A DNA stretch of 64,000 bases from Fibrobacterales bacterium (GCA_051532055.1 JAOPTX010000007.1:32001-96000); one strand, 5' to 3'; positions 5,000 through 47,434 are shown, counted from the first letter of the stretch. Notes: generated by a model from the letters alone, not told the origin. Numbers and translations are program-made.

Positions 5000-5027
5000 T
5001 TAAGTCCCCTTTTTTAACATCCGATAT
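5000..5027 (+). promoter_or_regulatory. Putative sigma-28 (FliA/SigD) promoter
   Basis: TTAAG-N15-TCCGATAT versus consensus TAAA-N15-GCCGATAA/T; intergenic. Confidence 0.6.
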
Positions 5028-5033
5028 TGAAGA

Positions 5034-5130
5034 TATAGGCACCATTTGCTTTGCTAATGGAGACGCTATCATTGTATAAAGGGTTCCACGGATGGATGCA
5101 TGCTTCAAGGATGAAGGCAAGCCCTTTACC
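5034..5130 (+). ncRNA. Candidate CsrA/RsmA-binding small RNA (or structured leader)
   Basis: Stem TAAAGGG(5077-83)/CCCTTTA(5122-28) encloses hairpins TCCA-CGGA-TGGA and CTTCA-AGGA-TGAAG. Ends are estimated. Confidence 0.45.
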
Positions 5131-5237
5131 ATAAATACTCTACTATTTTAAAAATTCTCTCCAGAGTTAAGAGTTCGGACTTGGGAGCAGAATCAAATTG
5201 CTATATTGCTGTGTAATAACAAACCACAGGATTTGCG

Positions 5238-7109
5238 GTGCTTGCTCAAGTAAAAAAACGGATTAAAAACTCTGAAATATTAGCGGTTTCTCAACGCATT
5301 GCCCAAAACAAGATCCCCTCATATAAATATCGCCCTCTTACTGACACTGAGATTGCCGAACTTATTCAGAATGGCAATACGTGCGATGATTGGACTCGAA
5401 TTCAGGCTGACCTACAATTCACAACTACTCAAATTCGCAACACTACCTTTTGCGGAAAGGTCTATCTCCCAAAATTCTTTGGTAATCTGATGGCACCTGG
5501 TGGAGTCTCAGTACCTGCAGGCATATTTAATTCGTCTATCAATAACAGTATTATTGAAAATTGCCACCTCTTTAATGTTTCAACACTTTCAAATACTATC
5601 GTTTCACACAGCGCCCTCCTGCGCAATGTAGGCTCTGTTATAGGCTCTGGTAAAACTCATTTTGGAGTGGGCCGCAAACTAAATATTGGTGATGAAACCG
5701 GCAACAGAACACTATTAGCGTTCCCTGAAATTGATCTTTCTATCGCAACAGCTGTTGTGATGAACAAGGAGGATATTGACTTTCAAAACGAGTATACTGA
5801 ACTCATTGAAGAATATCGAGAAAATTCTCTATCACCCTTTACCTTTATTGATCAAGAAGTAATTATTTCGAACACCACCAATATCCGAAATGCTTGGATT
5901 GGACGAAATGCCCGCATTGATGGAGCTATTCGCATTAAAAACTCTGTGATACTCAGTTCAATGGAACAGCCCAGTGCAGTCTATGATGGAGCAATCATTG
6001 AAAATGCAACACTACAATGGGGTTGTGAAGTGTGTTCATTGGCCCTTGTTGATCACTCAATACTTCTTGAAGAATCATCAGCCTCTAAGCAAGTTAAAAT
6101 AACCCACTCAGTTATTGGATCAAATACACACCCAGAATCTGGAGAAATCACCTCATCTCTCATTGGACCTTTTGTCGGCATGCACCATCAATCACTACTT
6201 ATTGCAGCGCTGTGGCCAGATGGTTGTGGCAATGTAGGCTATGGAGCTAATGTAGGGAGCAACCATACAGGGCGTCTTCCCGATCAAGAAATCTACCCAG
6301 GTCAAGGAATGTTTTTTGGCCTGAGCACTAGTATTAAATTCCCGGCAAACTACTCTAAATCACCATGGTCGCTCATAGCAACGGGAGTCACCACACTCCC
6401 TCAACGCCTTAAATTCCCCTTTTCCCTCATTACCGAAAGCCAAGGAAGCACACCACAACACCTCCTCCATCTCAACGAACTCCAGCCCGGATGGGTTTTT
6501 AGATACAATGCATTTGCCTTAGCACGAAATGAAATGAAATTTTCTAAACGAGATAAAAGTCGTCGAAATAAAGCGCCCTACACCTACATTACTAAAGAAA
6601 CTGCACAAATGGTTCTTGCGGCATGGCATCGTCTTAACACCATCGTACAAGTCAAAGAGTACTACACCGAAGAAAATATTGAAGGACTCGGAAAAAATTA
6701 CCTCACTGAATCTAAAAGGCAACAAGCGCTTATCGCCTATGCAGATTACCTCGAGATGTACGCCCTTCGACGAATCATTTCTAAACTTGAAACTAAAGAA
6801 GAGCTACTCGCTTCAGAAAAACCAACGGTAAAAAAACTATTCAATAACGACATCATGAGAGACATTGCACGCATTGTCACTTTTCCAGCCTCTACCATCC
6901 AACTCCTCAAGCGCTATCGCAAAGTCGAAAGAGCATGGACAGACGCTATAAGAGAATCAATTCAAAAAGACTTTGATCGTGGGGTTAAGGTTTTCGATGA
7001 CTACACCGACATTCACTCACCCGATGAACCTTCTCTACAATTTATTCAAGATACTTTTGATAACAATAGGAAAAGGGCAAATAACTTAATTGCCCTTGCT
7101 AAAAATTAA
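5238..7109 (+). CDS. DUF4954-family protein (left-handed beta-helix-like repeats)
   Basis: YRPLTDTEIAELIQNGNTCDDW N-terminus, hexapeptide-like repeats, and GPFVGMHHQSLLIAALWP..GNVGYGANVGSNH motif recalled for this family. Confidence 0.7.
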   Translation: MLAQVKKRIKNSEILAVSQRIAQNKIPSYKYRPLTDTEIAELIQNGNTCDDWTRIQADLQFTTTQIRNTTFCGKVYLPKFFGNLMAPGGVSVPAGIFNSSINNSIIENCHLFNVSTLSNTIVSHSALLRNVGSVIGSGKTHFGVGRKLNIGDETGNRTLLAFPEIDLSIATAVVMNKEDIDFQNEYTELIEEYRENSLSPFTFIDQEVIISNTTNIRNAWIGRNARIDGAIRIKNSVILSSMEQPSAVYDGAIIENATLQWGCEVCSLALVDHSILLEESSASKQVKITHSVIGSNTHPESGEITSSLIGPFVGMHHQSLLIAALWPDGCGNVGYGANVGSNHTGRLPDQEIYPGQGMFFGLSTSIKFPANYSKSPWSLIATGVTTLPQRLKFPFSLITESQGSTPQHLLHLNELQPGWVFRYNAFALARNEMKFSKRDKSRRNKAPYTYITKETAQMVLAAWHRLNTIVQVKEYYTEENIEGLGKNYLTESKRQQALIAYADYLEMYALRRIISKLETKEELLASEKPTVKKLFNNDIMRDIARIVTFPASTIQLLKRYRKVERAWTDAIRESIQKDFDRGVKVFDDYTDIHSPDEPSLQFIQDTFDNNRKRANNLIALAKN

Positions 7110-7113
7110 AGAA

Positions 7114-7147
7114 GTATTTCATTCGGCACTCTAGCCGAGTGAAATAC
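7114..7147. terminator. Hairpin between convergent genes (probable bidirectional terminator)
   Basis: GTATTTCATTCGGC-ACTCTA-GCCGAGTGAAATAC, 14-bp stem. Confidence 0.7.
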
Positions 7148-7157
7148 CATTTTCTAT

Positions 7158-7451
7158 CTAAATTGAATCAAGAGTATCAGATATCATAGTTCCCTGTGCA
7201 GCAACATTCATACCACTTCCGAGCATATCGAGACCCGTCAGATGATTTGCTGATTGCATCGCTCTTTGGTTTTGCTCTGCAATTTGGGTAGCCACGCTAC
7301 TAATATCATTTATAGCCGCCTCTTGAGAATAAAGCTCTTTTACTTCATTCTCATTTAACAGTGTAGATTCTGAATCTTTTTTATACGAAGTAGCCCCACT
7401 TGTTTGTGGATGCACTCCCCCTCCTGGGGTATTTGATTGTATTGGATCCAT
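7158..7451 (-). CDS. Small hypothetical protein (97 aa) behind a sigma-28 promoter
   Basis: GGAGGG SD 8 nt before ATG 7451 (MDPIQSNTP...). Has its own promoter and a downstream hairpin. No family recognised. Confidence 0.7.
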   Translation of the reverse strand: MDPIQSNTPGGGVHPQTSGATSYKKDSESTLLNENEVKELYSQEAAINDISSVATQIAEQNQRAMQSANHLTGLDMLGSGMNVAAQGTMISDTLDSI

Positions 7452-7598
7452 TTTCATTCCCTCCATAGAACGAATAGTTCATCATGAGCGTTTCCATGCT
7501 CACTCTTTTTGAAAGGGTCGAGACGTTATATCAATGAGATACATGCTCTCCAACATGCATCTCATTATTCTGTCTCGGGACTCTCTCCCCTAGTATTA

Positions 7599-7625
7599 AT
7601 ATCGGCAGGATATCAAAAACCTTTA
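7599..7625 (-). promoter_or_regulatory. Sigma-28 (FliA/SigD) promoter
   Basis: Minus strand TAAA-ggtttttgatatcct(15)-GCCGATAT, an exact consensus match. Confidence 0.8.
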
Positions 7626-7721
7626 GGCCTTTTTATCATTTACCATATTTTCATTTGGATATAGGCCAAATTCATTAATTTTAGGCAATTTTTCTATATT
7701 GTTCTATAAAAAGCTGGCTCC

Positions 7722-8972
7722 ATGACATCACAGACTCTACTCATTATCTTTATTTCTCTTTTCGCACTCAACACATTTATCACCTTATTTCTGGAAAAGA
7801 TCAATACCAATAATTTAAAAAAATTCCCTTTAGCGCCCGGCCAATTTTCCACATCAATTACTGAGAACGAATATTTAAAAAGTCAGAAGTATACAAAAAA
7901 CAAATCTCAATTCTCCATTGTTTCTTCACTTTATTCTGCAATTATAACCCTCATAATCCTTTTTTCTGGACTCCTTCCCTGGATAGATCAAACAGTACTT
8001 AAAATATTTTCAGTCCAATCGAATCCACTCAGCCACTCAGTGCTCGTACTTCTCTTCCTTTCATTTATTGCCAGTATTCCTCACATACCCTTTAAACTCT
8101 ATAGCACATTCAAACTCGAAGCCAAATATGGCTTTAACAAACAAACCATCAAAGAGTTTGTCATAGATGAAGCCAAAGCACTCCTTCTCTCTCTGATTAT
8201 TGGAGTTCCCTTTCTCTTTGCTGTTTTCTGGTTTTTTGAGGCTACTGGACCACTCTGGTGGCTTTGGCTCTTTAGCTTTATCGCCCTCTTTCAAATCATA
8301 ATGATGGTAGTTTACCCCATATGGATTGCCCCACTGTTTAATTCGTTCACCCCTCTTGACGAAGGAGAACTCAAAGACAGACTCAACGACCTCGCGCAAA
8401 AAGCCTCATTCACCACCCAAGGCATTTTTGTCATGGATGGCTCAAAGCGGTCAGGTCACTCTAATGCTTATTTTACAGGGTTCGGCTCATTTAGAAGAGT
8501 CGTCCTCTATGACACCTTAATTGAGCAACTCACAACAGATGAACTTGTTTCAGTCCTTGCACACGAGATCGGCCACTACAAAAAGAATCACATCTATAAA
8601 ATGTTAACCCGAGCATTACTTTTTATGGGTTTTGGCCTCTATATCCTCTCACATGTTATCAGCTGGGAACCACTATACACTAGTTTTAATGTAACCCCAA
8701 GTCATCACATGGGGCTCTTCTTATTTATGACTATACTCTCTCCACTCCTGTTTTTCATAACCCCATTAACGAACCTCTTCTCTCGTAAATATGAATATGA
8801 AGCGGATGCATATGCCGTGGCAATTACTCATACCAAAGAACCAATGCAACAAGCACTCATCAACCTCAGCAAAAAGAACCTGAGTAATCTGACGCCCCAC
8901 CCCTTATACAGCGGCTTTTATTATTCTCATCCCACAACACTGGAACGAATAGATGCGATTGAAGAGTTGTAA
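7722..8972 (+). CDS. M48A (Ste24/CAAX prenyl protease-like) zinc metalloprotease
   Basis: Multiple TMs, MDGSKRSGHSNAYFTG, HEIGH zinc motif, EYEADAYA, YSHPT..ER. Confidence 0.93.
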   Translation: MTSQTLLIIFISLFALNTFITLFLEKINTNNLKKFPLAPGQFSTSITENEYLKSQKYTKNKSQFSIVSSLYSAIITLIILFSGLLPWIDQTVLKIFSVQSNPLSHSVLVLLFLSFIASIPHIPFKLYSTFKLEAKYGFNKQTIKEFVIDEAKALLLSLIIGVPFLFAVFWFFEATGPLWWLWLFSFIALFQIIMMVVYPIWIAPLFNSFTPLDEGELKDRLNDLAQKASFTTQGIFVMDGSKRSGHSNAYFTGFGSFRRVVLYDTLIEQLTTDELVSVLAHEIGHYKKNHIYKMLTRALLFMGFGLYILSHVISWEPLYTSFNVTPSHHMGLFLFMTILSPLLFFITPLTNLFSRKYEYEADAYAVAITHTKEPMQQALINLSKKNLSNLTPHPLYSGFYYSHPTTLERIDAIEEL

Positions 8973-9032
8973 TCCCTGAATAACTAAAAATTTGTATTTT
9001 ATATCACAATCTTTAACTATGGTCTCAGTGTA

Positions 9033-10085
9033 ATGAATTTTCGAAATAAAGCCTTATTAGTTTTCTTCATTATAGCAGCTTCAATCATAAATGCATCTCC
9101 TCCCTATGCTCCCAAAGGTGATGTAAGAAAAACAACCATAGATGACTTCTATAAACATCCAAAGGTTGGAGACGATTTTAACGAGACATGGCGTTATAAC
9201 ATAACCCTCACTAATGGCACTAAAATTTTTCTCAATTACACCTCTATGAAAGTTCCTATGAAAGGGACCCAATGCGGTACTAATATATCACTCTTTAATT
9301 TTCACGGAAAGAACTATCAAGTTGGCCGTCAATACCCCGCCGCACGATTCAAACAAGATAAATCTCAACAATTATTGAGTATTAAAAATGCAACGGGTAA
9401 AGATAACGTCTTCTATATGAAAGGCAAGCCAGGGCCAGGCCACACTATTAAATTTCTCACATCAAAAAACGAAGGGTTTAATATTGAGCTCTTAGTTACT
9501 AAAAGCTATCCAGGGCTCGTAAAGGGTGACGGTATTTTTGACATTAGAGGAAAAAAAACAGGGCTCTTTATTCACCTTCCTTCTGCAGAAATTAAAGGAA
9601 CTGTTCATGTAGGCAATATAAAAGAACACGTAACGGGAACCATGTACATGGAACAAATATGGCAGTCTCACCTTTCAACTGAAACTTCTTCTCATGCATT
9701 TCAAATGTATGGAGACAAAAGCCCTCTCATGGGAAACATTATTGTCGGTTCAAAATCTCTTAACTCAAATATTTTTGGCTATGCAATTAATCGTCAAGAT
9801 ACCACACTCATTTTCCCAAAGATTGTCACATCCAAGGGCGCGACTATTTCGTACAAAAGTAGCGCAATAAGCGACCCAATTTTCACCTTTTGGGACCGTG
9901 AAAGACCGTTTATCGGGAGTACCTTTACTCGCCAACAACGCTACTCAGTACTTCTCACTATTGATGGATGGTTTGCTAAAAAAGCTGCCAAAATGGCAAT
10001 GGGGGGAGAAGCTATTTTCAATAGAGGCGTCGGCCTCCTCAACAACCTCCCCATTGATTATAATTTCTATCAACTGGATGACTAA
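9033..10085 (+). CDS. Secreted hypothetical protein (beta-rich, possibly AttH/lipocalin-like fold)
   Basis: Signal peptide, 'ETWRY' near the N-terminus and 'GTMYMEQIW'. The fold assignment is tentative. Confidence 0.55.
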   Translation: MNFRNKALLVFFIIAASIINASPPYAPKGDVRKTTIDDFYKHPKVGDDFNETWRYNITLTNGTKIFLNYTSMKVPMKGTQCGTNISLFNFHGKNYQVGRQYPAARFKQDKSQQLLSIKNATGKDNVFYMKGKPGPGHTIKFLTSKNEGFNIELLVTKSYPGLVKGDGIFDIRGKKTGLFIHLPSAEIKGTVHVGNIKEHVTGTMYMEQIWQSHLSTETSSHAFQMYGDKSPLMGNIIVGSKSLNSNIFGYAINRQDTTLIFPKIVTSKGATISYKSSAISDPIFTFWDRERPFIGSTFTRQQRYSVLLTIDGWFAKKAAKMAMGGEAIFNRGVGLLNNLPIDYNFYQLDD

Positions 10086-10849
10086 TGACCAAATTTAGAC
10101 CGTGTATCGACCTTCACAATGGAGCCGTAAAACAGATTGTTGGCGGCACTCTCAACGACACCACCACTCCCATAACTAATTTTGTATCAAATCATTCAGC
10201 TAAGTGGTTTGCAGAGCAGTACCGCTCTGATAGCCTTACAGGCGGCCACGTTATCAAGCTTGGACCTGGTAATGAAACTGCCGCTCTTGAAGCACTTAAA
10301 GCGTATCCTGGGGGCTTGCAAATCGGTGGAGGCATCACTCCAGATAATGCACTTTCGTATTTAGAAGCCGGGGCATCACATGTTATTGTGACCTCATATC
10401 TCTTTACTAATAAAACGCTTGACTATGACAAACTAAGGAAGCTTGTTGCTGTAGTTGGTAAAGAACGATTAATATTAGATTTAAGCTGCAGAGCTAAAGG
10501 TGAGAGTTGGTTTGTCGCAACAGATCGTTGGCAAACCCTAACAGACACCGAAATTACTGCTGAAACTCTTATTGAACTCGAAGAATATTGTACAGAATTT
10601 CTTGTACATGCAGCCGACGTTGAAGGACTCCAGGGCGGTATCGATTCTCGGCTGGTATCCTTTCTCGCTGAATATACAACAATACCAGTAACCTATGCAG
10701 GGGGGGCCCGTACAATAGCCGACCTTCAATTAGTAAATGAGTTATCTCAAGGTAAAATAGATTTAACTATTGGAAGCGCATTAGATATTTTTGGTGGTTC
10801 AGGTATTACATACGCGGAATGTCTTTTGTTTAACTCAAAAACTGAGTGA
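10085..10849 (+). CDS. hisA: ProFAR isomerase, eukaryotic (HIS6)-type HisA
   Basis: MTKFRPCIDLHNGAVKQIVGGTL, GGHVIKLG, HAADVEGLQGGID and DLTIGSALDIFGG match the yeast/plant HIS6-type subfamily. Confidence 0.93.
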   Translation: MTKFRPCIDLHNGAVKQIVGGTLNDTTTPITNFVSNHSAKWFAEQYRSDSLTGGHVIKLGPGNETAALEALKAYPGGLQIGGGITPDNALSYLEAGASHVIVTSYLFTNKTLDYDKLRKLVAVVGKERLILDLSCRAKGESWFVATDRWQTLTDTEITAETLIELEEYCTEFLVHAADVEGLQGGIDSRLVSFLAEYTTIPVTYAGGARTIADLQLVNELSQGKIDLTIGSALDIFGGSGITYAECLLFNSKTE

Positions 10850-10899
10850 CCACCCCTACCCCATAATTTAGGGACAGCTCCCTGTATAAAAGCTATATT

Positions 10900-12279
10900 T
10901 TGGCCACGTCACTCTTTTGTATTGAGACACCTGTGAATAGAGCCCCAAAACGCACTTTTGGAAAAGAACGTAAAGTCCTACATTTAAAACCAAATCTTTT
11001 TGGCACTATCAATCTTGTCATTCGATTTCACTGTATTCTTTTAGCAAACCTTCCCTCATTAATTCAATTTAGGTTTTCATATAAAAGACGTCCAAAGCGC
11101 ACCTCACCACGTATATTTCTCTATTCTGACAACCTCGATGAAACCAATGGTATCTCAGTAAATTCTCGTATTGTCGTGTCTCGGCTTAAAGAAATGGGAA
11201 GAGATGCCTACCTCATTGGCTCAGCTTATCATACCAATACACGAGGCCGTGTTGAACAAAATGGCACTATTCTTGCACCACAACTTTTCTCCCTAGAACA
11301 ATTTGGATATAAAGACTCAGAGATGGCAATTCCATCCTTAGGTGACCTTATTAAAGTATTCAGGCACCTTCCTCCCGACTTAATTGAGATCGAAACCCCT
11401 GCTACTGGTGGTTCACTTATCACCTTTGCTGCTAAAATCGTAGGAATACCTGTCATACAACACTACCGCACTGACATGATCGCCTATATGAAAAAGCTCA
11501 ATGTAGGGCTAGCAGAACGCATTTTTACAAAACTATGGATTAAGTTACTCTGTAAAATCACTCGTCCGATTGTAGTCCCTTCAGAAGATTTCCGCATTAA
11601 GGTTCGAAAAGAGTTTGGGATACCAGAGCAGGATATTGTTAAAATTCGCCGTGGCGTAAACATTATCGACTTTTCTCCTGAATTTAGGTATGAACCATTT
11701 TGGAACCGATGGTCTGAGAACAATGCCGCAACTCGATTCGTTTATGTTGGCCGTGTTTCGAAAGAAAAAGAACTCGATTTTTTAGAAGAGGTATGGAAAG
11801 AGTTTAGAGTAACCCATACTAACTGCGAACTCCTCATTGTTGGTGACGGCCCCTACCTGAGTGAAATGAAAAAGCATGCAGAATTTTTCCCCGAAGTATT
11901 TTTTAGTGGAAAACTTCTCGGAAAAGAGCTTGCCCTCGCCTATGCTCATGCTGACTTTTTCCTCTTCCCTAGTGGAACAGACACCTTTGGAAATGTAGTT
12001 GTTGAGGCGCTCGCCAGCGCCACACCTGCCATCGTATCTGATAGCGGTGGCCCTAAAGATATTATTGAATCAGGTGAGTATGGTAGAGTAATCCCTTTTA
12101 AAGATCACACCTGCTGGATTGATGTCCTTGAAGAATGTCACGATATTCGTCAAACAATGCCTGAGCGCCTTGAAGAGATGCAACACGCCGCTGTTAAGCG
12201 ATCACACTATTATGATCTCGATAAATCATGTGATGCGTTTTGGGAGTTCTACGAAAAAATTCTCCTCTACCGCTTTTAG
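10900..12279 (+). CDS. GT4 glycosyltransferase (PimB/MgtA/SQD2-like); start uncertain
   Basis: NGIS N-terminal loop, YVGRVSKEK, VGDGP, FPSGTDTFGNVVVEALAS (D/E-x7-E). Confidence 0.88.
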   Translation: MATSLFCIETPVNRAPKRTFGKERKVLHLKPNLFGTINLVIRFHCILLANLPSLIQFRFSYKRRPKRTSPRIFLYSDNLDETNGISVNSRIVVSRLKEMGRDAYLIGSAYHTNTRGRVEQNGTILAPQLFSLEQFGYKDSEMAIPSLGDLIKVFRHLPPDLIEIETPATGGSLITFAAKIVGIPVIQHYRTDMIAYMKKLNVGLAERIFTKLWIKLLCKITRPIVVPSEDFRIKVRKEFGIPEQDIVKIRRGVNIIDFSPEFRYEPFWNRWSENNAATRFVYVGRVSKEKELDFLEEVWKEFRVTHTNCELLIVGDGPYLSEMKKHAEFFPEVFFSGKLLGKELALAYAHADFFLFPSGTDTFGNVVVEALASATPAIVSDSGGPKDIIESGEYGRVIPFKDHTCWIDVLEECHDIRQTMPERLEEMQHAAVKRSHYYDLDKSCDAFWEFYEKILLYRF

Positions 12280-15200: not shown

Positions 15201-15335
15201 TACCGGTATATCTACCTTAGGCATGATCTCCATAGACATCATCCTGAAAGTATAGACGCCAAAGACTACGAGCGCAGTAATTATCATGAGCATGGTAATT
15301 GGTTTATTGATACTTAATCGTATTAGTGAACGCAT
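12276..15335 (-). CDS. RND efflux transporter permease (AcrB family)
   Basis: 1019 aa; YPGAGPEEIE, NSIVVLENI, GIVVNNGILILD, PMAIASIGGL. Confidence 0.95.
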   Translation of the reverse strand: MRSLIRLSINKPITMLMIITALVVFGVYTFRMMSMEIMPKVDIPVVTITTIYPGAGPEEIETSVTEKLEDAFSLLDGVDLIYSYQMEGVSIITIQFNMGLNVDFASIDVKDKINEIRRELPDAIEDPVVTKFDIGDKPVLSLALTGDESLVAVKKRAEDIQERLAKVSGVAAVNIEGGVEREILVELSKTEMEARGLSYESVFGIIRASNLNFPLGNIENQTQDINVRINSKFVSLDQLNELEIPTKMGVVQLKHIARVTDTYKEQVQDARYNEVTSVGLSIKKRADANIINVADKIKKKLKVITAGLPEGYTLSVAKDNSIFVNNSVNDVYVNIIFGIILTAIVLLVFLRKMSITIIAATTMPISIIGTVTFMYGSGFTFNMMSLMAIGIAVGILVTNSIVVLENIIKHMGRGDDPKKSAEEGTIEIATAVIASTLTNVAVFVPIAFMQSIVGAFFVEFGMTMVYVTGVSLFVSFTLTPMMASRMLHNRNQKEIDEFADTDRKGLMHWIEQKYEYGLELVLTRLGTIVTSIVVLLLFASIGIVVTQLGGEFVPKSDEGTFEVKVELPSGTNLETSNRAVAKVEEVLRDVPELVSQYATIGTIEGLAQGGHLSFVVVQLKDKSERDRSTEEIVADLRTQMVHIPDASIIIKSIKSTGGDPNASDLDVEIVGTNMDNILEAVDSVSSFIAAVPGVADMETNWKSGKPELVLRPRRNAVADYGVTVGQIAQTIRMYVVGDAATQYREGVDEYDVTVKFAESDRKKRSDILSLPILSPRGVIPLASFVEESASEGPTTISRKNKERMVKISTNLVPGMTPGDVQKQLDPYIESLNLKGDTRITFGGNAEMMADAAADFLIAIVMAIILTYVLLTALLESFLQPIIIMSTIPLGLIGVIWSLFLSGSAISIISLMAIVMLIGIVVNNGILILDYANHLMRNEGLTLREAAIKGAASKFRAIVMTNIATIMAMMPLALGLGAGAEMRQPMAIASIGGLIVSTTLTLFFVPMLYWVFARFGMKES

Positions 15336-15354
15336 TATATTCTCCTCATCTCAC

Positions 15355-16416: not shown

Positions 16417-16422
16417 ACCTTC

Positions 16423-17805: not shown

Positions 17806-17818
17806 AAGAGAGCACTCC

Positions 17819-18418: not shown

Positions 18419-18441
18419 TACTATACTCTCATTCTTAATCT

Positions 18442-18455
18442 TGACTACTAGGTCA
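18442..18455. promoter_or_regulatory. Candidate TetR operator
   Basis: TGAC-tactag-GTCA inverted repeat ~25 nt upstream of the tetR start. Confidence 0.45.
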
Positions 18456-18665
18456 TAATTTAGACAAGAAGTCGCCAGTAAGCAATACAATTATTGTAAC
18501 ACTTGGTAACATTGTCCTTTTTCCCAATGATTGTACCTAATATCACTTCATGAAACAATGAATCACCCTATTTTCTAGCAATCGTACCCACTCTTTCCCC
18601 TTGTGTATCAAATGGGCCAGATAATCACGATCACTTATTCACAAAGTGCCAAAAATTTGATATAA

Positions 18666-33419: not shown

Positions 33420-33422
33420 AGA

Positions 33423-34226: not shown

Positions 34227-34275
34227 CCTCTATATGAGGCACAATGTAGCAATCTCAATTTTAGTTGTATAGAGA

Positions 34276-37466: not shown

Positions 37467-37485
37467 TGAGGGTTCCCCACCTTTT

Positions 37486-39273: not shown

Positions 39274-39535
39274 CTTCGTTAAACTTGTCCTCAAATATTT
39301 TCTGTAAATTGGCAAAAATCTCTTCTTGATTTTCCCCATCGAGCTCTACATCTATTACTGCACCAGGTTCAATTGCGAGCATCATAATATTAAGAATACT
39401 CTTAGCATTTACTCTGGTATTATTATAGTTAAAAAAGACTTCTCCAATTGAACGTGAGGTCACATCAACAATCATTGAAGCTGGACGGGCATGTACACCC
39501 AATTTATTCTGGACAGTTAGGGTCTCTTTCATCAT
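39266..39535 (-). CDS. ptsH: Phosphocarrier protein HPr
   Basis: GVHARPAS (His15) and NAKSIL (Ser46). Confidence 0.95.
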   Translation of the reverse strand: MMKETLTVQNKLGVHARPASMIVDVTSRSIGEVFFNYNNTRVNAKSILNIMMLAIEPGAVIDVELDGENQEEIFANLQKIFEDKFNEDD

Positions 39536-39550
39536 ATAGTATTGTTTCTT

Positions 39551-40468
39551 TTAAAAAATGTCAACGTTTACATCGAGTCCATCATCTATAATCACATTAA
39601 ACAGTGAATCAGTTGAGATGAGGGTTGTATTTAATTTATTATAAAAGGCGGTATCATTGAGCATCGCCCCTACAGTATTATCAGTCGCTTGAAGCTTCTC
39701 TGATAGCACTAATAGGCGATTGGTCAATGAATCAACCTTGGTCAAGAGCACTTTTGTTTTAGTGGTACTCTCGGTGGTCTGTTTCAAGAGCTGTTCTAGG
39801 CTCCCCATATTATTATCTAAAAACTGATTTACTTTAACTGATGCCTGTTTTAAATTACCCAAACTACTTTGAAGTACTGGATCGGTATCATCAATCATTA
39901 TCTCAAGCCTATCTTCAAGTCGTTCTGCCTTGGCAAAAATTGACTTAAAACTCTCTTTAAAACGATCATTTGCTACAGTCGAATCAAGTACCTCTTTAAC
40001 TACTTTTAGTAGTACTGCTGTTGAATCAAAGACCTCACCTGCATATCCCATCACTTCAGCAATTCCTGCATCAAAATGCCCTTCAATTTGGTCGCCTTTT
40101 TTAAGGTAATTAGGTGAGTCTCCCAGGCTTATCACCACCTGACGTTCTCCCATAAGACCAATATTGCGTACACGAAAATCAGAATTGACAGGGATGCGAA
40201 TACTATCAATTACATCAAGAGTTACAAGAACTTTTCTACTTGCCTGATGCAGAGCAATATGTGCAACTTTTCCACTTTTTACTCCATTAATTTTAATGGG
40301 GTCACCAGGCTGTAATGTACTCACTTGTTCAAACATTACGAAATACTGCACCTTGGTCTCTCGAGGGTCTTGTTCATCAAGAAACATTATTCCAAAAACC
40401 AGAATAATCAGTGCGACTATAAGCACCATACCAACTACAAAATATTTACTCTTATCACTTGCTTTCAT
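39551..40468 (-). CDS. mlaD: MlaD/MCE-domain protein
   Basis: N-terminal TM, LQPGDPIKINGVKSGKV, GLMGE, helical extension. Confidence 0.88.
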   Translation of the reverse strand: MKASDKSKYFVVGMVLIVALIILVFGIMFLDEQDPRETKVQYFVMFEQVSTLQPGDPIKINGVKSGKVAHIALHQASRKVLVTLDVIDSIRIPVNSDFRVRNIGLMGERQVVISLGDSPNYLKKGDQIEGHFDAGIAEVMGYAGEVFDSTAVLLKVVKEVLDSTVANDRFKESFKSIFAKAERLEDRLEIMIDDTDPVLQSSLGNLKQASVKVNQFLDNNMGSLEQLLKQTTESTTKTKVLLTKVDSLTNRLLVLSEKLQATDNTVGAMLNDTAFYNKLNTTLISTDSLFNVIIDDGLDVNVDIF

Positions 40469-40519
40469 ACATTACTCTTAAACAACCAACAACGCGCTAG
40501 TCAATACCCTAAATGTAAT

Positions 40520-41410
40520 TCAAAAATCGACATTAATTGTCAATTCTTGCGCTAAAATCACATCTTTCACCTTAAATGCACTGATTTTCAGACTCTCAAG
40601 GTTTTTGTGAAAGCCTGGATCAAACAATGCTTTGCCAAGACTATTCTGCTGTGTCATAGCCTTTATTTTCTCTTCTTCAACGATATCTGAAAGGCGCTCT
40701 AGTTTTCCAATAAGAAGCTCGCTCCTTTGTAAAACTTGGTTAAAATCTTCAGAAACTGTTTCATGATCAAATTGAGCAATTTGTCTCTCAATTGTATTCA
40801 ATCCGTACTCTATCGACTCAATGGTAGAGACTATAGTAGATTCACTTTCCCGAGCAACAGTGTTCGCACGATCTATTAATTGTTGTGCCTTTTGCTTTAC
40901 CCTCACTAGGGCATTCTTCGATTCATCACTAAACACAACTGAATCAAGGGCACCCATAAGTGTTGTAATAACGCCTTGGGTCTGTCCTATTAAAGCTTGG
41001 GCTTGTCGAGCAAGGCCTGAAGTGCCCTTATCACTACTTGCATAAATTGTACTCCCAGGCGTGTACACCGATTTACTCTCACCAAGAAGCACGGCAAGTA
41101 CTCGTTCACCAAGAAGACCATTGTTCCGGATAAACACCTTTGAATCAATAGGAATCGCAATACGATCATCAATAGCGGCCTGAATTTGTATATACTCTCC
41201 AGCCTGCTCAAACGAAAGTACCTCACCATTAGCTAATCCATTCACCGTCACATCGCTTCCCAATGCTAATGTGTGGATTTCAGTACTCAATATTGAATAT
41301 TTTGATGTTCCAAATCGTGGTGAATTGGGATGATACATAATATAGAGAAACCCAACAATGAATACGATGGCCGCCACCCCTATATAGAATACAGTATCAT
41401 TCCTATTCAT
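40520..41410 (-). CDS. mlaD: MlaD/MCE-domain protein (second paralog)
   Basis: TM, LALGSDVTVNGLANGEV, GLLGE; C-terminus INVDF resembles the paralog's VNVDIF. Confidence 0.82.
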   Translation of the reverse strand: MNRNDTVFYIGVAAIVFIVGFLYIMYHPNSPRFGTSKYSILSTEIHTLALGSDVTVNGLANGEVLSFEQAGEYIQIQAAIDDRIAIPIDSKVFIRNNGLLGERVLAVLLGESKSVYTPGSTIYASSDKGTSGLARQAQALIGQTQGVITTLMGALDSVVFSDESKNALVRVKQKAQQLIDRANTVARESESTIVSTIESIEYGLNTIERQIAQFDHETVSEDFNQVLQRSELLIGKLERLSDIVEEEKIKAMTQQNSLGKALFDPGFHKNLESLKISAFKVKDVILAQELTINVDF

Positions 41411-42431
41411 AAAAATCGGTACTATTCTCGTGATCCATCGCCATTTCATTGTATGCATTGCTCTTTTTTGCAGCAATGATATCAATCAATTTATTATTAA
41501 ATTCCGCGGCAGAATCTATGCCATTCATTTTCATAAGCATGTTCATCGCGATCACCTCAGATATGACAGTCATATTTTTACCAGGGGTTATTGGTATCTG
41601 GACCGTGTTTACAGGAATACCCATAATTTGCCGTGTCGCATCACCCAATCCCGTCCGCTCATAACTTGTTTCAGCATTCCAGAGCTGTAAATCTACTATT
41701 ATCTCTACTTTTTTTACCTTACGTACTGCGTGAATTCCAAACATCGATTTAATATCAATAATTCCCACACCGCGAATCTCCATATGGTGGTCTATTATAT
41801 TACTGCTTTTTCCAATAATAGAATCACCGATTCGTGTTAAACGAACCGCATCATCAGCCACTAGCCTGTGTCCTCGCTCAACTAAATCAAGAGCACACTC
41901 ACTTTTACCAATATTACTCTGACCAACATAGAGCATTCCCACACCATACACATCTACCAGTGATGCATGTACATTCACATACGGAGCAAACCAATTCTCC
42001 AATATCTTTTGAAGAGACCTAATGAGGGTTATCGACGGCTTTTGACAACTCATAATAGGGATTTTAAGCTCGGTACACATTTCAACCAGCTCGTTATGTG
42101 CAGGAAGGTCATGAGTCACAACCCATAGGGGTGAAGGATATTTCTTGAGGCGATCAAAAATCTCCATTCTCCGGTCTTTCCCTACAGATTCTAAATAAGA
42201 CCACTCTGTAGTACCAATGAGCTGAACTCGTTGATGAGTATAGACGTCAAGAAAACCGGCCAAAGCCATTCCCGGTCGGTTTATATACGGCTCAGTAATC
42301 TTGGAATCAAGAGTCTCAGCCCCATTTAATAATTGTAATTTGAACTCCTCTTGATAGCGTGTATAAAAATCTCGTACGAGATATTTCCGTTTACACACTA
42401 CCTCAAGGTTATCAAGAGCATTTTGTTTCAA
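41403..42431 (-). CDS. hprK: HPr(Ser) kinase/phosphorylase
   Basis: NRPG, GQSNIGKSE Walker A, GHRLVADD, HMEIRGVGII. Confidence 0.95.
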   Translation of the reverse strand: MKQNALDNLEVVCKRKYLVRDFYTRYQEEFKLQLLNGAETLDSKITEPYINRPGMALAGFLDVYTHQRVQLIGTTEWSYLESVGKDRRMEIFDRLKKYPSPLWVVTHDLPAHNELVEMCTELKIPIMSCQKPSITLIRSLQKILENWFAPYVNVHASLVDVYGVGMLYVGQSNIGKSECALDLVERGHRLVADDAVRLTRIGDSIIGKSSNIIDHHMEIRGVGIIDIKSMFGIHAVRKVKKVEIIVDLQLWNAETSYERTGLGDATRQIMGIPVNTVQIPITPGKNMTVISEVIAMNMLMKMNGIDSAAEFNNKLIDIIAAKKSNAYNEMAMDHENSTDFYE

Positions 42432-42439
42432 TAGTTAAC

Positions 42440-42760
42440 TTAACCCTCCACCATATCTGCGGTTGGATTTGCTTTATGTGATTTTAGAATCTCATTCTCT
42501 TTTTTCAGCTGACGTTGCATTCTTTCGAGTACTTTTTCTACCGCTTTACCCATGTTCTCTTCTTCTGCTTTTGCGACAACTGTTTTATTAAGGATATTTA
42601 CCGTGATCTCAGCCGAACGTGAACTTTTATGTTGCTCAAGGATAACATGGGCATCAATAATATTGTTATAAAACTGAGACAGTGCCTGAACATCTGCGGT
42701 CATATTATCTTGCAGTTCTTGAGAAGCGTGAAAATGTCTGGCTGTAAATTGAACGTTCAT
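42440..42760 (-). CDS. hpf: Ribosome hibernation promoting factor (short HPF/RaiA)
   Basis: MNVQFTARH N-terminus, RQLKK C-terminal helix, follows rpoN. Confidence 0.88.
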   Translation of the reverse strand: MNVQFTARHFHASQELQDNMTADVQALSQFYNNIIDAHVILEQHKSSRSAEITVNILNKTVVAKAEEENMGKAVEKVLERMQRQLKKENEILKSHKANPTADMVEG

Positions 42761-43016
42761 AGGTATTCTCCATTGTTATGTGAATGAGACCTCGTTTAAG
42801 TCATTAAGATTATGCAACTTAACACCACCTCATAGTACTAGTATACATTAGTTTTAAACTTTAAAAAAGCACTATTTTAATTTTTTTCCATCTTAGAAAC
42901 GTTTTACTCGTCACAGTTTAAAGATCATACTTTTAAGGATATATTCTCACAATATGGTCAATTATTTGATTAAAAAGCCTCTATAGAGCTTTCCCACACA
43001 ACAAATCACACTCTTC

Positions 43017-44483
43017 TTAAAACTTTTTGCGCATGCGAGCGGGTAAAATATTGAGCTGTTCTCTATACTTAGCAACCGTTCGTCGCGCAACTTCGATACC
43101 CTTGATTTTGAGAGCTTCGACAATTTTTTGATCACTCAAAGGTTTTTTAGGATCTTCATTTTCAATGGTGTCCTTGATCGACCCTTTAGTGCGTTCTGCA
43201 GAAACCTCCGATCCATCTTGCTGAGTCACACTCGAAGTAAAAAACTTTTTCAATTCAAATATTCCCATATCGGTCTGTACATATTTACCGTTAGTCACCC
43301 GATTCACCGTCGAAATGTGCATCTCAATTTTATCAGCGATATCCTGCAAAATCAGAGGTTTAAGAAACGAAGGCCCTTTAAAAAAGAAATCATGCTGCAC
43401 CTCGACAATTGCCTGAGTCACTTTGAGAATAGTTGATTTTCTTTGGTCAATACTCCGCATCAGCCAATTTGCAGAATTAAGCTTCTGTTTTACAAACTGC
43501 TTCTCTTCACCTTTAAGCTTGCTGCCCTTCTGAAGAATAGAGCTATAGGCTTTAGAAATACGCAAATTTGGTACACTTTTATCATTGAGGTATACCATCA
43601 GTTTCCCCTCAACATTTTCTACAGCCACATCAGGTATAACTGTTGCACTACCACCATCACCAATCGCTTGTCCCGGCTTTGGATTGAGTCGAGCAATGTC
43701 ACCGAGTGCTTTTTGAATTTCTGAAGTAGACGTATCATATTTTTTAGCTAGATTAGAGACCTGCAATTTTTGCAACATCCCATAGCTCTCTTCTAGTATT
43801 TTGACAGTAAATATTGAATCAAAAACCTCTTTGCGGGCCTGTAGCAACAAACATTCCTGCACTGAAGTTGCCCCAACTCCTGCCGGAGTAAAAGTTTGGA
43901 GCACATGAAATGCTTCACGTACATCATTGCTCACCTCATACAAACTCTTATCAGCGTTGATAACCGACTCTATCTCAGTATAAAACCTATTACTCGTGGT
44001 AGGTATCTCTTCGCCAGATTCACGGATGAGCAAACCATCAGCATTAAGGCTATATATCAGGTACTCAACTAAATCAGTTATCTCTGCAGAAAGTTTTCGG
44101 TCTTCGAGTTGTTCTATCAAATAATCTTCAAGATTTTTTGAATACACAATAGGGCGTTCATACTGTTCATCAGGATCGGGACGAGAGTCCATAGACTGCA
44201 TGCCATAATCAAAGCCATCGTTCAGATACTCATCCCAATCGATCTCCTCTTTGGCCTCTTGAATCTCATCAAGCTCTGTCTCTTTCGTCTCAGTAGCTTC
44301 TGGTTCTTTTACATCTTCGACTTCACTCTCAATTTCAAGTATGGGATTTACTTCCAACTCTTGTTGTACCATAAGTTCTAGCTCTTGTGAGGTCACCTGA
44401 AGCAACTTCAAAGATTGAATCATCTGAGGCGAAAGTCTCTGCTCCAGTTTCGCACTAATATTAAGCTGTAATCCTAAATCCAT
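43017..44483 (-). CDS. rpoN: RNA polymerase sigma-54
   Basis: PQMIQSLKLLQ region I, HISTVNR HTH, ARRTVAKYRE RpoN box. Confidence 0.98.
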   Translation of the reverse strand: MDLGLQLNISAKLEQRLSPQMIQSLKLLQVTSQELELMVQQELEVNPILEIESEVEDVKEPEATETKETELDEIQEAKEEIDWDEYLNDGFDYGMQSMDSRPDPDEQYERPIVYSKNLEDYLIEQLEDRKLSAEITDLVEYLIYSLNADGLLIRESGEEIPTTSNRFYTEIESVINADKSLYEVSNDVREAFHVLQTFTPAGVGATSVQECLLLQARKEVFDSIFTVKILEESYGMLQKLQVSNLAKKYDTSTSEIQKALGDIARLNPKPGQAIGDGGSATVIPDVAVENVEGKLMVYLNDKSVPNLRISKAYSSILQKGSKLKGEEKQFVKQKLNSANWLMRSIDQRKSTILKVTQAIVEVQHDFFFKGPSFLKPLILQDIADKIEMHISTVNRVTNGKYVQTDMGIFELKKFFTSSVTQQDGSEVSAERTKGSIKDTIENEDPKKPLSDQKIVEALKIKGIEVARRTVAKYREQLNILPARMRKKF

Positions 44484-44492
44484 AGTTCTCTC

Positions 44493-45230
44493 TTATAGAC
44501 TAAATGATTGTCCAAGATAAATACGTTTCGCATCTTCATCATTTGCAAGGTGATCAGCAGTACCCTCAATAAGTACCCTTCCTTGAAACATTATATAAGC
44601 CCTATCTGTTATAGCCAATGTTTCTCTCACACTGTGATCAGTGATGAGAATCCCCATATTATCATTTTTTAACTTCGAAATGATAGATTGGATATCTTCA
44701 ACCGCAATAGGATCTATTCCAGCAAAAGGCTCATCCAACAACAAAAAATCGGGTTCTGACGCTAAAGCTCGCGCAATTTCGAGACGACGCCGTTCACCAC
44801 CAGAGAGCGAATAGGCTTTATTTTTACGCAGCCTAGTGATCTTAAAGTCTTCAAGTAAAAATTCGAGTCGTTCTTTCCGCTCTTTTTTATTCATCTTCAT
44901 AGTCTGTAAAATCGCCATGATATTATCTTCTACAGAGAGCTTTCGAAAAATCGATGCTTCTTGGGGAAGATACCCAAGCCCCAAACGGGCCCGTTTATAC
45001 ATTGGAATTTTGGTTACATCATGGTCATCAAGGTAGACCACACCCCCTGATGGCTTCACCATTCCCGCCATCATATAAAAACTGGTTGTTTTACCAGCGC
45101 CATTAGGTCCCAGTAGCCCTACGACTTCGCCTTGGGTTACTCGAATAGAGACCCCATCCACCACCTTACGATCACCATATACTTTTATAAGGTGCTCTGT
45201 GCGAATTGTTCTTCCTAAATTCTCTACCAT
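44493..45230 (-). CDS. lptB: LPS export ABC ATPase
   Basis: [40 protein letters not shown]. Confidence 0.96.
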
Positions 45231-45266
45231 ATATTCCAACTTTATATCAGACAGTAATGGACTGCC

Positions 45267-46442
45267 TTACTTAACTATTGAGTCCTTCACCTCTACCTCT
45301 GTATTCAGAGGGCTGGGTGTAATTGCACTCTCTTTTTTCTCACCAGAGTAAATTCCCTGAGACACATTACCTTTTAAGGTAAAACCACTTATTGCTCGAT
45401 TTTTAAAATTAAGCCAGATTGTGTCACCAACAGCATCATTCTTTCCTTCAAATTTCCCCTGGTCACTAAAATAGTGATATAGCGTACTCGCCTGTTCCCA
45501 GATTTTAATGGTATCAAGCATCCCTTGTTTCATAATCATCTTAAGGGAGTTGCCCTTCATTTTATTAATAAAATCAGGACGGTCATCTCTATAATTTTTA
45601 CTCTCGGCACTTCCAATTACTTCAAGGTTACTGATGAATGAATTTTGAAATTCAACAATCAATGAATCACCGACAATTTCAGAAATGTCATGGGCCCCGC
45701 CCCCACTCTTCTCTTTTTTTAAACCCTTTGCTCCTTGGACAACCTCAATACGTCGAATAGTATCCTTATCCATAAAGATTCTCATAAGAGAACCTTCAAT
45801 TTCAAATTGTTCAATAATTGCTTTTGGGGAACCTTTCAATATCAATTCACCCTTCTCAATATTGTAAATAGCAGTATCACAAGAAATTGACATCTTTTCT
45901 TGGGTAACCGTGACCCCATGAATGGCATGAGCCACTTGTAAAGAATCATTAAATTCAAGAAGTTCAGCCTTAATCTCAAGAGTATCGTCTTTACCCTCAT
46001 CACCAGGTATCAAGCGACGAATCATTGGATTTATTTTTACTTGAGTAAGCTTTTTATCTTGATAATAATCAAGTTCACCTCCATAGAGGAACAGTGATGA
46101 TGCAGAGTCTCGGGCAACAACATTTCCCTTTGCATTTACCCGATTGTCGGCTTTTTGATAGAATCCACTTTTCGCGGTGAGCTGCCCCTTAGGATGACGA
46201 AACCGAAAACCCCCATCACAATAGAGCGCATCTTTCTTACTATCCCAGGTTGCGGATTCAGTATAAAACTTGGCATCACCTCGCTTGAACCTAATTCCTC
46301 CTTCAAGGAAATAGCTCCCCGAACTACCAGAGCCTCGAAACTTATCTGCATGTTCCATAATCAAGGGTTCTACTGAAAAGCTCAATTCGCAGAAAACGAA
46401 GAGAATTAAAAAAGAGAATGTATACAAGTTAGCGCGTTCCAT
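45267..46442 (-). CDS. lptA: Long LptA/OstA-like beta-jellyroll protein
   Basis: Signal peptide, repeated OstA-type strands, lies between lptC and lptB. Confidence 0.75.
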   Translation of the reverse strand: MERANLYTFSFLILFVFCELSFSVEPLIMEHADKFRGSGSSGSYFLEGGIRFKRGDAKFYTESATWDSKKDALYCDGGFRFRHPKGQLTAKSGFYQKADNRVNAKGNVVARDSASSLFLYGGELDYYQDKKLTQVKINPMIRRLIPGDEGKDDTLEIKAELLEFNDSLQVAHAIHGVTVTQEKMSISCDTAIYNIEKGELILKGSPKAIIEQFEIEGSLMRIFMDKDTIRRIEVVQGAKGLKKEKSGGGAHDISEIVGDSLIVEFQNSFISNLEVIGSAESKNYRDDRPDFINKMKGNSLKMIMKQGMLDTIKIWEQASTLYHYFSDQGKFEGKNDAVGDTIWLNFKNRAISGFTLKGNVSQGIYSGEKKESAITPSPLNTEVEVKDSIVK

Positions 46443-46539
46443 AGGATTAAAATAAAAATTTTATGTTGAAAATACCTCAATTCACCATTAATTGGTATGA
46501 ATTTTGCTTATTTTAATCAAACAAAGTTCATTTTACAAA

Positions 46540-47130
46540 TTATTCCTCAGAAGCTCCAGAAACATCACTTGCCTCAATAGTTTCAATACCCTCATCTACA
46601 TTTTGCAAAATGGCAGTGACTCCTGATAAAATTCGCCAATCTTTTAGGTCAACATCAGAAATAAAGCCTGTCCCCGTTAGTACATCGCCATCTTCTGAAA
46701 TAACCCGAACCCGGCTATCTGTTGTTATACGATTTGAACGTTTATCCCACGTGAGGGAGTCAGCCTTAATAGAGGCCCCTTCTTGAGTTTTTAAAAATAC
46801 ATCACCTTTTGCCACAATAAAGGTGAGATTATTATCAATTGTACCCGAATCAGCTTGAACCACACCCGTTTCAACACCAAGAGAATCAAATATGACCACA
46901 TTTATTGGACGTGCAAATATTTTTTCATCACCACTCCACCGCTCGAGATACTTTGTACGTAAAACCCAGAGCAATTTATCCTTATCAAAATACTCCATAG
47001 TGGTGGTACTATCGAAAAGCATGCTGGGACGCGGTGTAATCGTTATTTTTTTCTCTTCATTAAGCTCTAATTTGCTGCACGAAATAGTCATTAACATGCT
47101 AAGAGCGACAAAAATCCACACAAAACTCAT
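46540..47130 (-). CDS. lptC: LPS export periplasmic protein LptC (lipoprotein-like)
   Basis: 'AKGDV', 'ADSLTWD', 'ITTDSRV', 'GTGF' LptC-type motifs; AAGGA SD before ATG 47130. Confidence 0.82.
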   Translation of the reverse strand: MSFVWIFVALSMLMTISCSKLELNEEKKITITPRPSMLFDSTTTMEYFDKDKLLWVLRTKYLERWSGDEKIFARPINVVIFDSLGVETGVVQADSGTIDNNLTFIVAKGDVFLKTQEGASIKADSLTWDKRSNRITTDSRVRVISEDGDVLTGTGFISDVDLKDWRILSGVTAILQNVDEGIETIEASDVSGASEE

Positions 47131-47272
47131 AATTATCCTTACAAAAGGGCACAAACCCCCATAGGAGCACATGAGTAAATGTAACAAATCAGTACATTTT
47201 GAGGTGTATTGACCATACTTTTACATTAGCTCACACCCCCTCAATTATTTTTTAAAAATTTTAAGTTTTTAC

Positions 47273-47300
47273 TCAAGATTCATTAAGGTCTGGTCGATAT
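47273..47300 (+). promoter_or_regulatory. Putative sigma-28 promoter
   Basis: TCAAG-N15-GTCGATAT; intergenic. Confidence 0.55.
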
Positions 47301-47306
47301 GATATG

Positions 47307-47434
47307 AGAAGGATTTGGTGTATTGTAAACGGACTAATTTCTTTCACATCATTTTTGGAGGACTCTTCCCCTTTGACTTCCGAATTTGATACTCTCCGAT
47401 CATAAGGCAAATATCCCTGATATTTGCCTTTTTT
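47307..47434 (+). ncRNA. Candidate trans-acting small RNA with C/U-rich loops
   Basis: Bounded by a sigma-28-like promoter and a strong terminator. Hairpins TTTGGAGG/CTTCCGAA (loop ACTCTTCCCCTTTGA) and TGAT/ATCA (loop ACTCTCCG). Confidence 0.55.
47404..47434 (+). terminator. Intrinsic terminator
   Basis: AAGGCAAATATC-CCT-GATATTTGCCTT-TTTT, with no plus-strand gene directly upstream. Confidence 0.85.

Follow-up and report, generated by a model that had tools for sequence, protein, structure and literature searches.

Three intergenic motifs resembling promoters of the flagellar sigma factor sigma-28 (FliA) lie in a 64,000-nucleotide (nt) stretch of a Fibrobacterales genome (the window; G000:C7:32001-96000, from an assembly of 5.17 Mb in 181 contigs with 39.6% G+C), and the question that they raise is whether they belong to one regulatory circuit. 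The original prediction had described them as a single CsrA-centred late-motility module, made up of a CsrA decoy (locus 1), a CsrA-regulated mRNA (locus 2) and a base-pairing small RNA (sRNA; locus 3). Having computed motifs, ranks, conservation, covariation and complementarity, we find that the three loci are three different things, with sigma-28 control in common at most. Locus 3 is predicted to be a sigma-28-transcribed, terminated and previously undescribed trans-acting base-pairing sRNA. We regard it as fairly probable that this sRNA pairs with the mRNA of a divergent flagellin, that locus 2 is gated by CsrA and that locus 1 is a plain 5' untranslated region (UTR), as its sequence suggests.

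The fliA, csrA, fliW and flagellin genes, which the original prediction had proposed to look for elsewhere in the genome, are all present. FliA of G000 matches TIGR02479 with 259.5 bits (cut-off 189.6), csrA and fliW are adjacent to each other and lie beside a flagellin gene, and 12 Flagellin_N matches were detected, of which eight form a tandem array on contig C36. Of 41 sampled genomes of the order, only G000, its sole congener G001, G002 and G005 have flagellin genes above the cut-off. A phylogenomic study had used genomes to infer flagella in members of the phylum other than Fibrobacter (Abdul Rahman et al. 2016, PMC4704652).

All three motifs are where they had been described, and no recognisable flagellar gene follows any of them: downstream are a DUF4954 gene at locus 1, an open reading frame (ORF) without a family at locus 2 and, at locus 3, a terminator followed by a coiled-coil ORF of 100 amino acids (aa) and then an M23 peptidase gene. 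The motifs were ranked with a two-block matrix trained on 10 flagellin-family promoters of G000 (tTAAAGtTT-N11-13-nCCGATAt, about 100-185 nt upstream of 10 flagellin-family genes), with every genome position scored. At a threshold of at least 21 bits, 14 matches were retrieved in G000, seven of which are training promoters, compared with one, two and one in three simulated order-3 Markov genomes. The proposal to score the sites with such a matrix placed the promoters of locus 3 (21.98 bits, rank 9 in 5.17 Mb) and locus 2 (21.09 bits, rank 14) among the best of the genome, and left locus 1 far behind (9.57 bits, rank 1000).

At locus 3, a sigma-28-type promoter (47272..47301, + strand; CTCAAGATT-N12-GTCGATATG) would drive an sRNA of about 128 nt (47307..47434, +, the 5' end being predicted), which folds with -34.9 kcal/mol and a z score of -4.06. 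Within it lie a hairpin with a C/U-rich loop (47348..47390, +; CUUCCCC at 47365-47371), a single-stranded seed, CUCUCCGAUCAUAAG (47392..47406, +), and an intrinsic terminator retrieved by a terminator scan (47404..47436, +), in which a 12-bp stem (47404-47430) is followed by a T-run. From promoter to terminator, identity to G001 is about 98%, against 88% over the surrounding 611 nt; the promoter differs by a single spacer change and the adjacent upstream intergenic DNA is divergent.

Homologues of this sRNA were detected in seven genomes in all (G000, G001, G002, G005, G067, G079 and G086), which represent three families and five genera. G005, which belongs to a different family from G000, carries a sigma-28 promoter of 19.1 bits upstream of the gene orthologous to that of the 100-aa coiled-coil protein, followed by a hairpin with the loop UUCUUCCCAAUCUG, the single-stranded AAUCUCCGAUCACAAGG and a terminator. 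A search with the 14-mer CTCCGATCAYAAGG retrieved a third copy, in G002, where the sigma-28 promoter was read from the sequence, and a phylum-wide scan of 296 genomes added the copies in G067, G079 and G086, with promoters of 22.8-24.4 bits. The seven sRNAs measure 99-134 nt, each has a promoter and a terminator, and all seven genomes encode flagellin genes or FliA, the latter being above the TIGR02479 cut-off also in G067, G079 and G086. Other matches to the 14-mer in the phylum (13 genomes) and matches to loop plus seed were set aside, as they had no promoter or terminator and looked coding; the 14-mer matches in G253 were devoid of all sRNA features, as judged from summary flags.

The hairpin stems are unrelated in sequence between the three lineages (AUCAUUUUUGGAGG, CAAAUAGAAU, GUGUUAAUC and others). 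In every lineage the hairpin folds with UCUUCCC(C/A/G) in its loop, the f4 copies containing one or two such hairpins. An alignment of the 3' parts of the seven sequences gave a seed core, CUCCGAUCAYAAGG, that is invariant and unpaired in all seven sRNAs, and a terminator with 14 pairs, four of which show two-sided compensatory changes. The full-length MAFFT alignment misplaced the hairpins between lineages; pair counts are given for seed and terminator only, and the hairpins were judged by eye and from single-sequence folds. A 10-codon ORF noticed by eye in the G000 sRNA sits in a part that cannot be aligned in the other lineages. Locus 3 has, in short, its own promoter and intrinsic terminator and is non-coding. 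The GGA motifs of the G000 copy are not conserved, one of them being GGG in G001 and the G005 sRNA containing none, so that the sRNA is not a CsrA sponge. The Rfam scan that had been proposed for the window matched no family at the gathering threshold; permissive scans yielded far sub-threshold matches only, those at locus 3 being on the opposite strand, and no paralogues of the three RNAs were found elsewhere in G000. The sole RNA run found, an 11.5-Mb metatranscriptome, contains 12% of the words sampled from 46900-48100; its two contigs span only 46900-46932 and 47780-47963, leaving the sRNA interval uncovered, and are uninformative either way.

Locus 3 could alternatively be a leader or attenuator acting in cis, in which the sigma-28 promoter would drive the operon of the coiled-coil and M23 genes and the terminator would gate read-through. 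The RNA does lie directly upstream of this operon and in the same orientation in G000, G001 and G005, and in the window only about 50 nt separate its terminator from the ATG at 47484. The operon follows the sRNA in these three genomes only, however. In G002 it is encoded on another contig with no RNA preceding it, while the RNA stands beside lptC and the next sizeable gene downstream is convergent; neither a coiled-coil nor an M23 homologue comes after the RNA within the locus in G067 and G086. The conserved neighbour of the sRNA is lptC, in six of the seven genomes. Because the operon is not always downstream, a free-standing sRNA gene is favoured over an operon leader. Moreover, a TATAAT between terminator and ATG, conserved in G001, could serve the operon, and attenuation leaves unexplained why an invariant seed should have a co-varying complement in the leader of another gene. 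A cis-acting leader is therefore highly improbable in our judgement, and we proceed with the trans-acting sRNA.

Two observations concern the genes downstream. The small coiled-coil gene and the M23 peptidase gene (window 47484-48646; L020/L064) form a conserved pair in G000, G001, G002 and G005. The TATAAT mentioned above is a perfect one; it occupies 47449-47454, after the sRNA terminator and before the coiled-coil gene, and may represent the operon's own sigma-70 promoter.

The predicted target of the sRNA is the leader of a divergent flagellin. In G000, the seed has a 15-nt perfect complement in the leader of the flagellin gene G000:C48:14942-15859, whose promoter ranks third among the sigma-28 matches of the genome and whose 305-aa product matches Flagellin_N (64.8 bits) and Flagellin_C (33.5 bits) far more weakly than the main flagellins do. 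The same relation was found in all seven genomes: the leader of the orthologous flagellin-family gene contains the complement to that genome's own seed, 43-71 nt downstream of a sigma-28 promoter (12.2-25.6 bits), with helices of 15-19 bp and -26.7 to -39.5 kcal/mol. Flagellin_N is above the Pfam cut-off in all five of the target genes scanned, and the orthologues in G001 and G002 were judged from their N-termini only. The one variable position of the seed, Y, is U opposite A in lineage f1 (G000 and G001), whereas the remaining five genomes have C facing G. An accessible, conserved seed thus meets a conserved and covarying target site, and the predicted sRNAs, from organisms that are uncultured, make up a compact family with clear limits, whose predicted target co-varies with it. 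The part of the original prediction that took locus 3 for a base-pairing sRNA is supported by this conservation over seven genomes.

Every leader offers a second contact, a GGGAAG in the loop of a small hairpin located 12-42 nt upstream of the seed site, to which the CUUCCC loop of the sRNA is complementary over 6-10 bp. A further GGGAAG constitutes the Shine-Dalgarno (SD) sequence of the target in G086 and G067, and in G079 the seed site ends in GGAGAGG, which is followed by 6 nt and the AUG. In G000 and G001 a second target was detected, the sigma-28-driven leader of an acidic 172-aa protein without a Pfam family (G000:C12:52427-52945). It contains GGGAAGAG and, 30 nt later, AUGAUCGGAGA over the SD, 9 nt before the AUG, which gives 11 nt of seed complementarity over the SD in G000. 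Altogether, the contact sites overlap the ribosome-binding site in four of the eight leaders examined.

Pattern counts indicate that these sites are specific. Each of the seven genomes has one sRNA copy of the 14-mer, and the five genomes outside f1 each have one antisense copy as well; the reversed 14-mer gave no match in those five. The combined pattern GGGAAG-N5-35-GATCGGAG is confined to these leaders (two matches in G000, two in G001, one in G002 and one in G005), with no matches for its reversed control, and widening the gap to 5-80 nt returned only the same two matches in all of G000. Two of the 15 non-self TGATCGGAG sites in G000 are located within 250 nt downstream of a sigma-28 match of at least 16 bits, where about 0.02 would be expected. 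A ranking of whole leaders with RNAduplex was abandoned on account of long spurious duplexes (mean -24.6 kcal/mol), exact-complement and pattern counts being used instead.

That the RNAs are transcribed, where they begin and end, that they pair in vivo, that CsrA binds and in which direction regulation goes are inferences from these features, on which we propose the following mechanism. Sigma-28 would make the sRNA together with its target mRNAs. The seed would then form a duplex of 15-19 bp with the 5' leader of the divergent flagellin mRNA, and the CUUCCC loop would contact the GGGAAG of the leader hairpin loop or, in some genomes, of the SD. In this genus, a second sigma-28 mRNA, that of the acidic 172-aa protein, would be bound at both sites, the seed covering its SD. 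Pairing would lower the translation or the stability of the divergent-flagellin mRNA: repression is the most likely sign and takes up somewhat more than half of our belief in any regulation. With translational repression, the most likely outcome, the late flagellar class would contain an incoherent feed-forward loop. Such a mechanism would single out the divergent flagellin as the regulated component, which suggests a special role for this paralogue.

The 3' half of the seed site forms, in the f1 and f2 leaders, one arm of a hairpin (GGAGAGCRU with AYGCUCCC), and the hairpin of the C48 leader shows a compensatory change in G001 (GCGU with ACGC). It is possible that binding of the sRNA opens or refolds this hairpin as a switch, as its position may suggest. 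The hairpin itself (GGAGAGCAU with AUGCUCCC; C48:14883-14930, L075) overlaps the 3' end of the sRNA site.

Alternatively, the sRNA might act mainly via CsrA, its CUUCCC loop masking the GGGAAG hairpin loop and so altering the repression of the divergent flagellin by CsrA. GGGAAG lies in a small hairpin loop in all lineages and is similar to the A(N)GGA(A/U)G loops that the leaders of the main flagellins carry, and the SD of the divergent flagellin also contains GGA. On the other hand, a seed duplex of 15-19 bp is enough for conventional regulation, and the sites overlap the SD itself in several leaders. Considering both sides, we hold a route through CsrA to be unlikely, and see just as slim a chance that the GGGAAG loop is at once a predicted CsrA site and the kissing partner of the CUUCCC loop. 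In that event, an RNA made by sigma-28 would determine for each target whether it is subject to the CsrA-FliW checkpoint, and would be an RNA antagonist directed at one CsrA target only, in a lineage whose CsrA is believed to be controlled solely by the protein FliW. Conventional pairing of the seed with the divergent-flagellin leader is the reading that we retain.

Several points weigh against it. Hfq (PF17209) had no match in G000, whose assembly is 94% complete. Three 15-nt perfect complements to the sRNA of about 130 nt were counted genome-wide in G000; such a complement is not rare within one genome, and the target claim rests on conservation. The covariation of the seed amounts to one independent compensatory event, between f1 and the other lineages. 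In f1 and f2 about 60-80 nt separate the seed site from the flagellin start codon downstream of it, so that direct occlusion of the SD is not evident there. In addition, the loop and the GGGAAG site, and the seed and its site, are ordered 5'-5' and 3'-3', which rules out a single continuous duplex and calls for separate helices. For the joint reading of the three loci, it must be added that the matrix, with 10 training sequences, is over-fitted and may understate locus 1, and that the composite motif described below for locus 2 was designed after the flagellin and locus 2 leaders had been viewed. As an observation apart, G000 appears to use a base-pairing sRNA although no Hfq match was found.

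Locus 2 is on the opposite strand and differs in kind, being a leader attached to its gene. A sigma-28-type promoter (7598..7626, -; CTAAAGGTT-N11-GCCGATATT) precedes a 5' leader of about 140 nt (7452..7591, -; z score -5.12), in which we detected a long hairpin with the loop UUGGAGAG (7567-7532, -), a small hairpin with the loop AUGGAAAC on a 6-bp stem (7503-7484, -) and the SD GGAGGGA (7464-7458, -). The gene that follows (7158..7451, -) encodes an orphan protein of 97 aa; its MDP start was deduced from homologues, and starts at 7457 and 7466 are possible (97-102 aa). In G001, the promoter shows two changes, both tolerated by the consensus; one two-sided change and several G-U changes leave the pairing of the first stem intact, and neither loop differs.

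The flagellin leaders of G000, G002 and G005 are built in the same way, with an A(N)GGA(A/U) hairpin loop followed, after about 25 nt, by ACAYGGAGG. A composite motif, consisting of a GGA-loop hairpin, an NGGAG SD and a start codon with an ORF of at least 50 aa, gave nine matches in G000 (five flagellins, locus 2 and three others) against one, none and none in the Markov genomes, a count that is partly circular. With a GGA loop upstream, a GGA at the SD and csrA and fliW in the genome, locus 2 has the components of a hag/flaA-type leader; this two-site layout presumably matches that of the Bacillus subtilis hag leader. The predicted CsrA sites would be the GGA of the hairpin loop and that of the SD. 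Locus 2 is thus a likely CsrA target, in keeping with the CsrA-regulated mRNA of the original prediction: its gene is predicted to belong to the late class and to be co-expressed with the flagellum, and its translation is probably gated by CsrA-FliW like that of the flagellins, as the shared layout suggests. The flagellin array on contig C36 (C36:152-9598, outside the window) deserves mention here; each of its eight genes has its own sigma-28 promoter and its own leader with GGA hairpin and ACAYGGAGG, and G001 possesses the same array.

The orphan protein matched no Pfam or NCBIfam family, even at an E-value of 10. Among 1.84 billion representative sequences only three matches were retrieved: the copy of the congener, P0004 (51% identical) and a repeat in the giant protein P0005. 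A metagenome scan found no further relatives, and a genome scan retrieved the congener only, the gene being present in two of the 121 genomes of the order (G000 and G001). The C-terminal half of the protein is conserved. P0005 itself is 6234 aa long and contains 11 repeats similar to residues 9-53 of the orphan protein.

Locus 1 consists of the sigma-28-like match (4999..5028, +; GTTAAGTCC-N12-TCCGATATT), weak as it is, a 5' UTR (5034..5237, +) in which a compound hairpin rich in GGA occupies 5079-5128 (sub-hairpin CUUCAAGGAUGAAG), and a DUF4954 gene encoding a left-handed beta-helix protein (5238..7109, +; PF16314, 166.7 bits). Downstream of the motif, no terminator was found before DUF4954 starts at 5238. 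Of the structured RNAs claimed for all three loci, those of loci 2 and 3 have the unusually stable folds reported above, whereas the 217-nt leader of locus 1 is not unusually stable as a whole (z score -0.11). It contains seven GGA, only one of which sits in a canonical GGA-loop hairpin (CUUCAAGGAUGAAG). In G001, the motif scores 12.5 bits, and the hairpin and the last 90 nt or so of the leader are 95-98% identical.

Whether sigma-28 reads this leader at all is doubtful, with even chances or lower, and we see it as a toss-up whether the motif is a chance match, DUF4954 being transcribed by another sigma factor and the function of its leader being unrelated to motility. Besides the rank of 1000, chance is suggested by a looser core pattern, which has 74 matches in the genome, 12 of them intergenic and including all three loci; since about nine intergenic matches are expected from its density in coding DNA, the pattern is weak support for locus 1. 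An orthologue of DUF4954 is present in all 41 genomes of the order, flagellated or not, and none of 28 loci from other genera has an upstream sigma-28 motif of at least 9.2 bits (best 9.1); most of these 28 genomes have no flagellin, and only G002 and G005 are informative, in neither of which a sigma-28 motif or a GGA hairpin was found upstream of the orthologue. Against chance, both promoter blocks are kept in G001 while four of the 12 spacer bases have changed, and a terminator-like hairpin of trkA, recognised by eye, stands just upstream, so that a new promoter is needed. Furthermore, seven of the other nine intergenic core-pattern matches, which include five flagellin promoters and the promoters of fliD and flgB identified by eye, precede flagellar genes. 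Whatever its promoter, locus 1 is, judging from its sequence, a conserved 5' UTR, possibly regulated by CsrA, and not a free CsrA decoy.

The other top intergenic matrix matches lie before flgB-like, fliF, fliD, flgM and SprA-like genes and before the genes of two acidic proteins, the named genes being putative identifications made by eye from translations. Strong sigma-28 promoters precede the SprA-like gene and two acidic low-complexity proteins without a Pfam family (C35:23660-24596, C4:187472-188601 and C12:52427-53031), which may be co-expressed with the flagellum or secreted by it. The window contains a fourth matrix match (50552-50580, +; 18.3 bits, rank 25). We rejected it as a promoter and consider it probably due to chance, as it is antisense within the signal-peptide region of the ORF 48643-50631 and has no gene on its strand downstream.

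Can the three loci still form one CsrA module? All three regions are enriched in GGA (seven, five and four occurrences at loci 1, 2 and 3, against 2.2, 1.5 and 1.4 expected from the genome frequency), the CUUCAAGGAUGAAG hairpin of locus 1 is of the same type as the flagellin-leader hairpins, and both CsrA and FliW are encoded. Nevertheless, locus 1 runs into DUF4954 without a terminator, its promoter is weak (9.6 bits), and it offers one canonical GGA-loop hairpin instead of the many found in RNAs of the CsrB/RsmZ type, with nothing comparable upstream of the DUF4954 orthologues in G002 and G005; these same features speak against locus 1 as a stand-alone decoy. At locus 3, conservation does not extend to the GGA motifs, and no complementarity was found that would tie the sRNA to locus 1 or 2. 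The conservation in relatives that had been anticipated extends to seven genomes for locus 3 and to G001 for locus 2, and is missing for locus 1 outside the genus. A single three-part module is accordingly very unlikely, and the loci are best compared with known systems one by one.

CsrB, RsmY and RsmZ are free, terminated RNAs with many GGA hairpins. Locus 1 is similar to them in being a GGA-rich RNA with a GGA in a hairpin loop. It departs from them by its one canonical hairpin, by the lack of a terminator and by its continuation into a coding gene, so that it does not have the make-up of a decoy.

Locus 2 falls closer to a described system. A partner switch between CsrA, FliW and flagellin is reported for B. 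subtilis and Campylobacter jejuni (Dugar et al. 2016, PMC4894983; Oshiro et al. 2019, PMC6529632), and several lineages are known to have this checkpoint. The Fibrobacterales genome resembles it in that csrA and fliW lie beside a flagellin gene and the flagellin leaders have a GGA loop and a GGA-containing SD. The leader of locus 2 copies the flagellin layout, with the difference that its gene encodes an orphan 97-aa protein and that CsrA binding is predicted. In the literature on Fibrobacterota and Fibrobacterales we found no report of a regulatory RNA, a sigma-28 regulon or a CsrA circuit, and the word 'sigma' is absent from the 2016 phylogenomic paper that inferred flagella for the phylum (PMC4704652).

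For the sRNA, the nearest parallels are in Escherichia coli and C. jejuni. In E. coli, sRNAs dependent on the flagellar sigma factor act back on flagellar genes, including the levels of flagellin, as far as the accessible text of a 2023 study describes (eLife, PMC10578931). According to the same text, those RNAs are derived from UTRs, and MotR and FliX pair inside coding sequences; Hfq is among the keywords of that paper. The Fibrobacterales sRNA is, by contrast, predicted to stand alone as a gene, with a promoter and a terminator of its own, and to pair in 5' leaders in a genome where no Hfq was found, and, with no Rfam match, it has no sequence similarity to the E. coli RNAs.

In C. jejuni, the accessible parts of Konig et al. 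(2024, Nat Commun, PMC11187230) describe CJnc170 (FlmR), an sRNA that depends on FliA, and the RpoN-dependent CJnc230 (FlmE), and report that overexpression of CJnc170 leads to shorter flagella and less motility. As far as that text goes, the predicted Fibrobacterales RNA is like CJnc170 in being a FliA-dependent sRNA in a host with CsrA and FliW that would dampen flagellar output from within the late class. It differs in belonging to another phylum, in having no sequence relation to CJnc170 and in its predicted target, a divergent flagellin leader contacted at two sites. If the prediction is true, a late-class feed-forward loop, in which one sigma factor makes both the mRNA and the sRNA that acts on it, would have arisen in a third, distant lineage.

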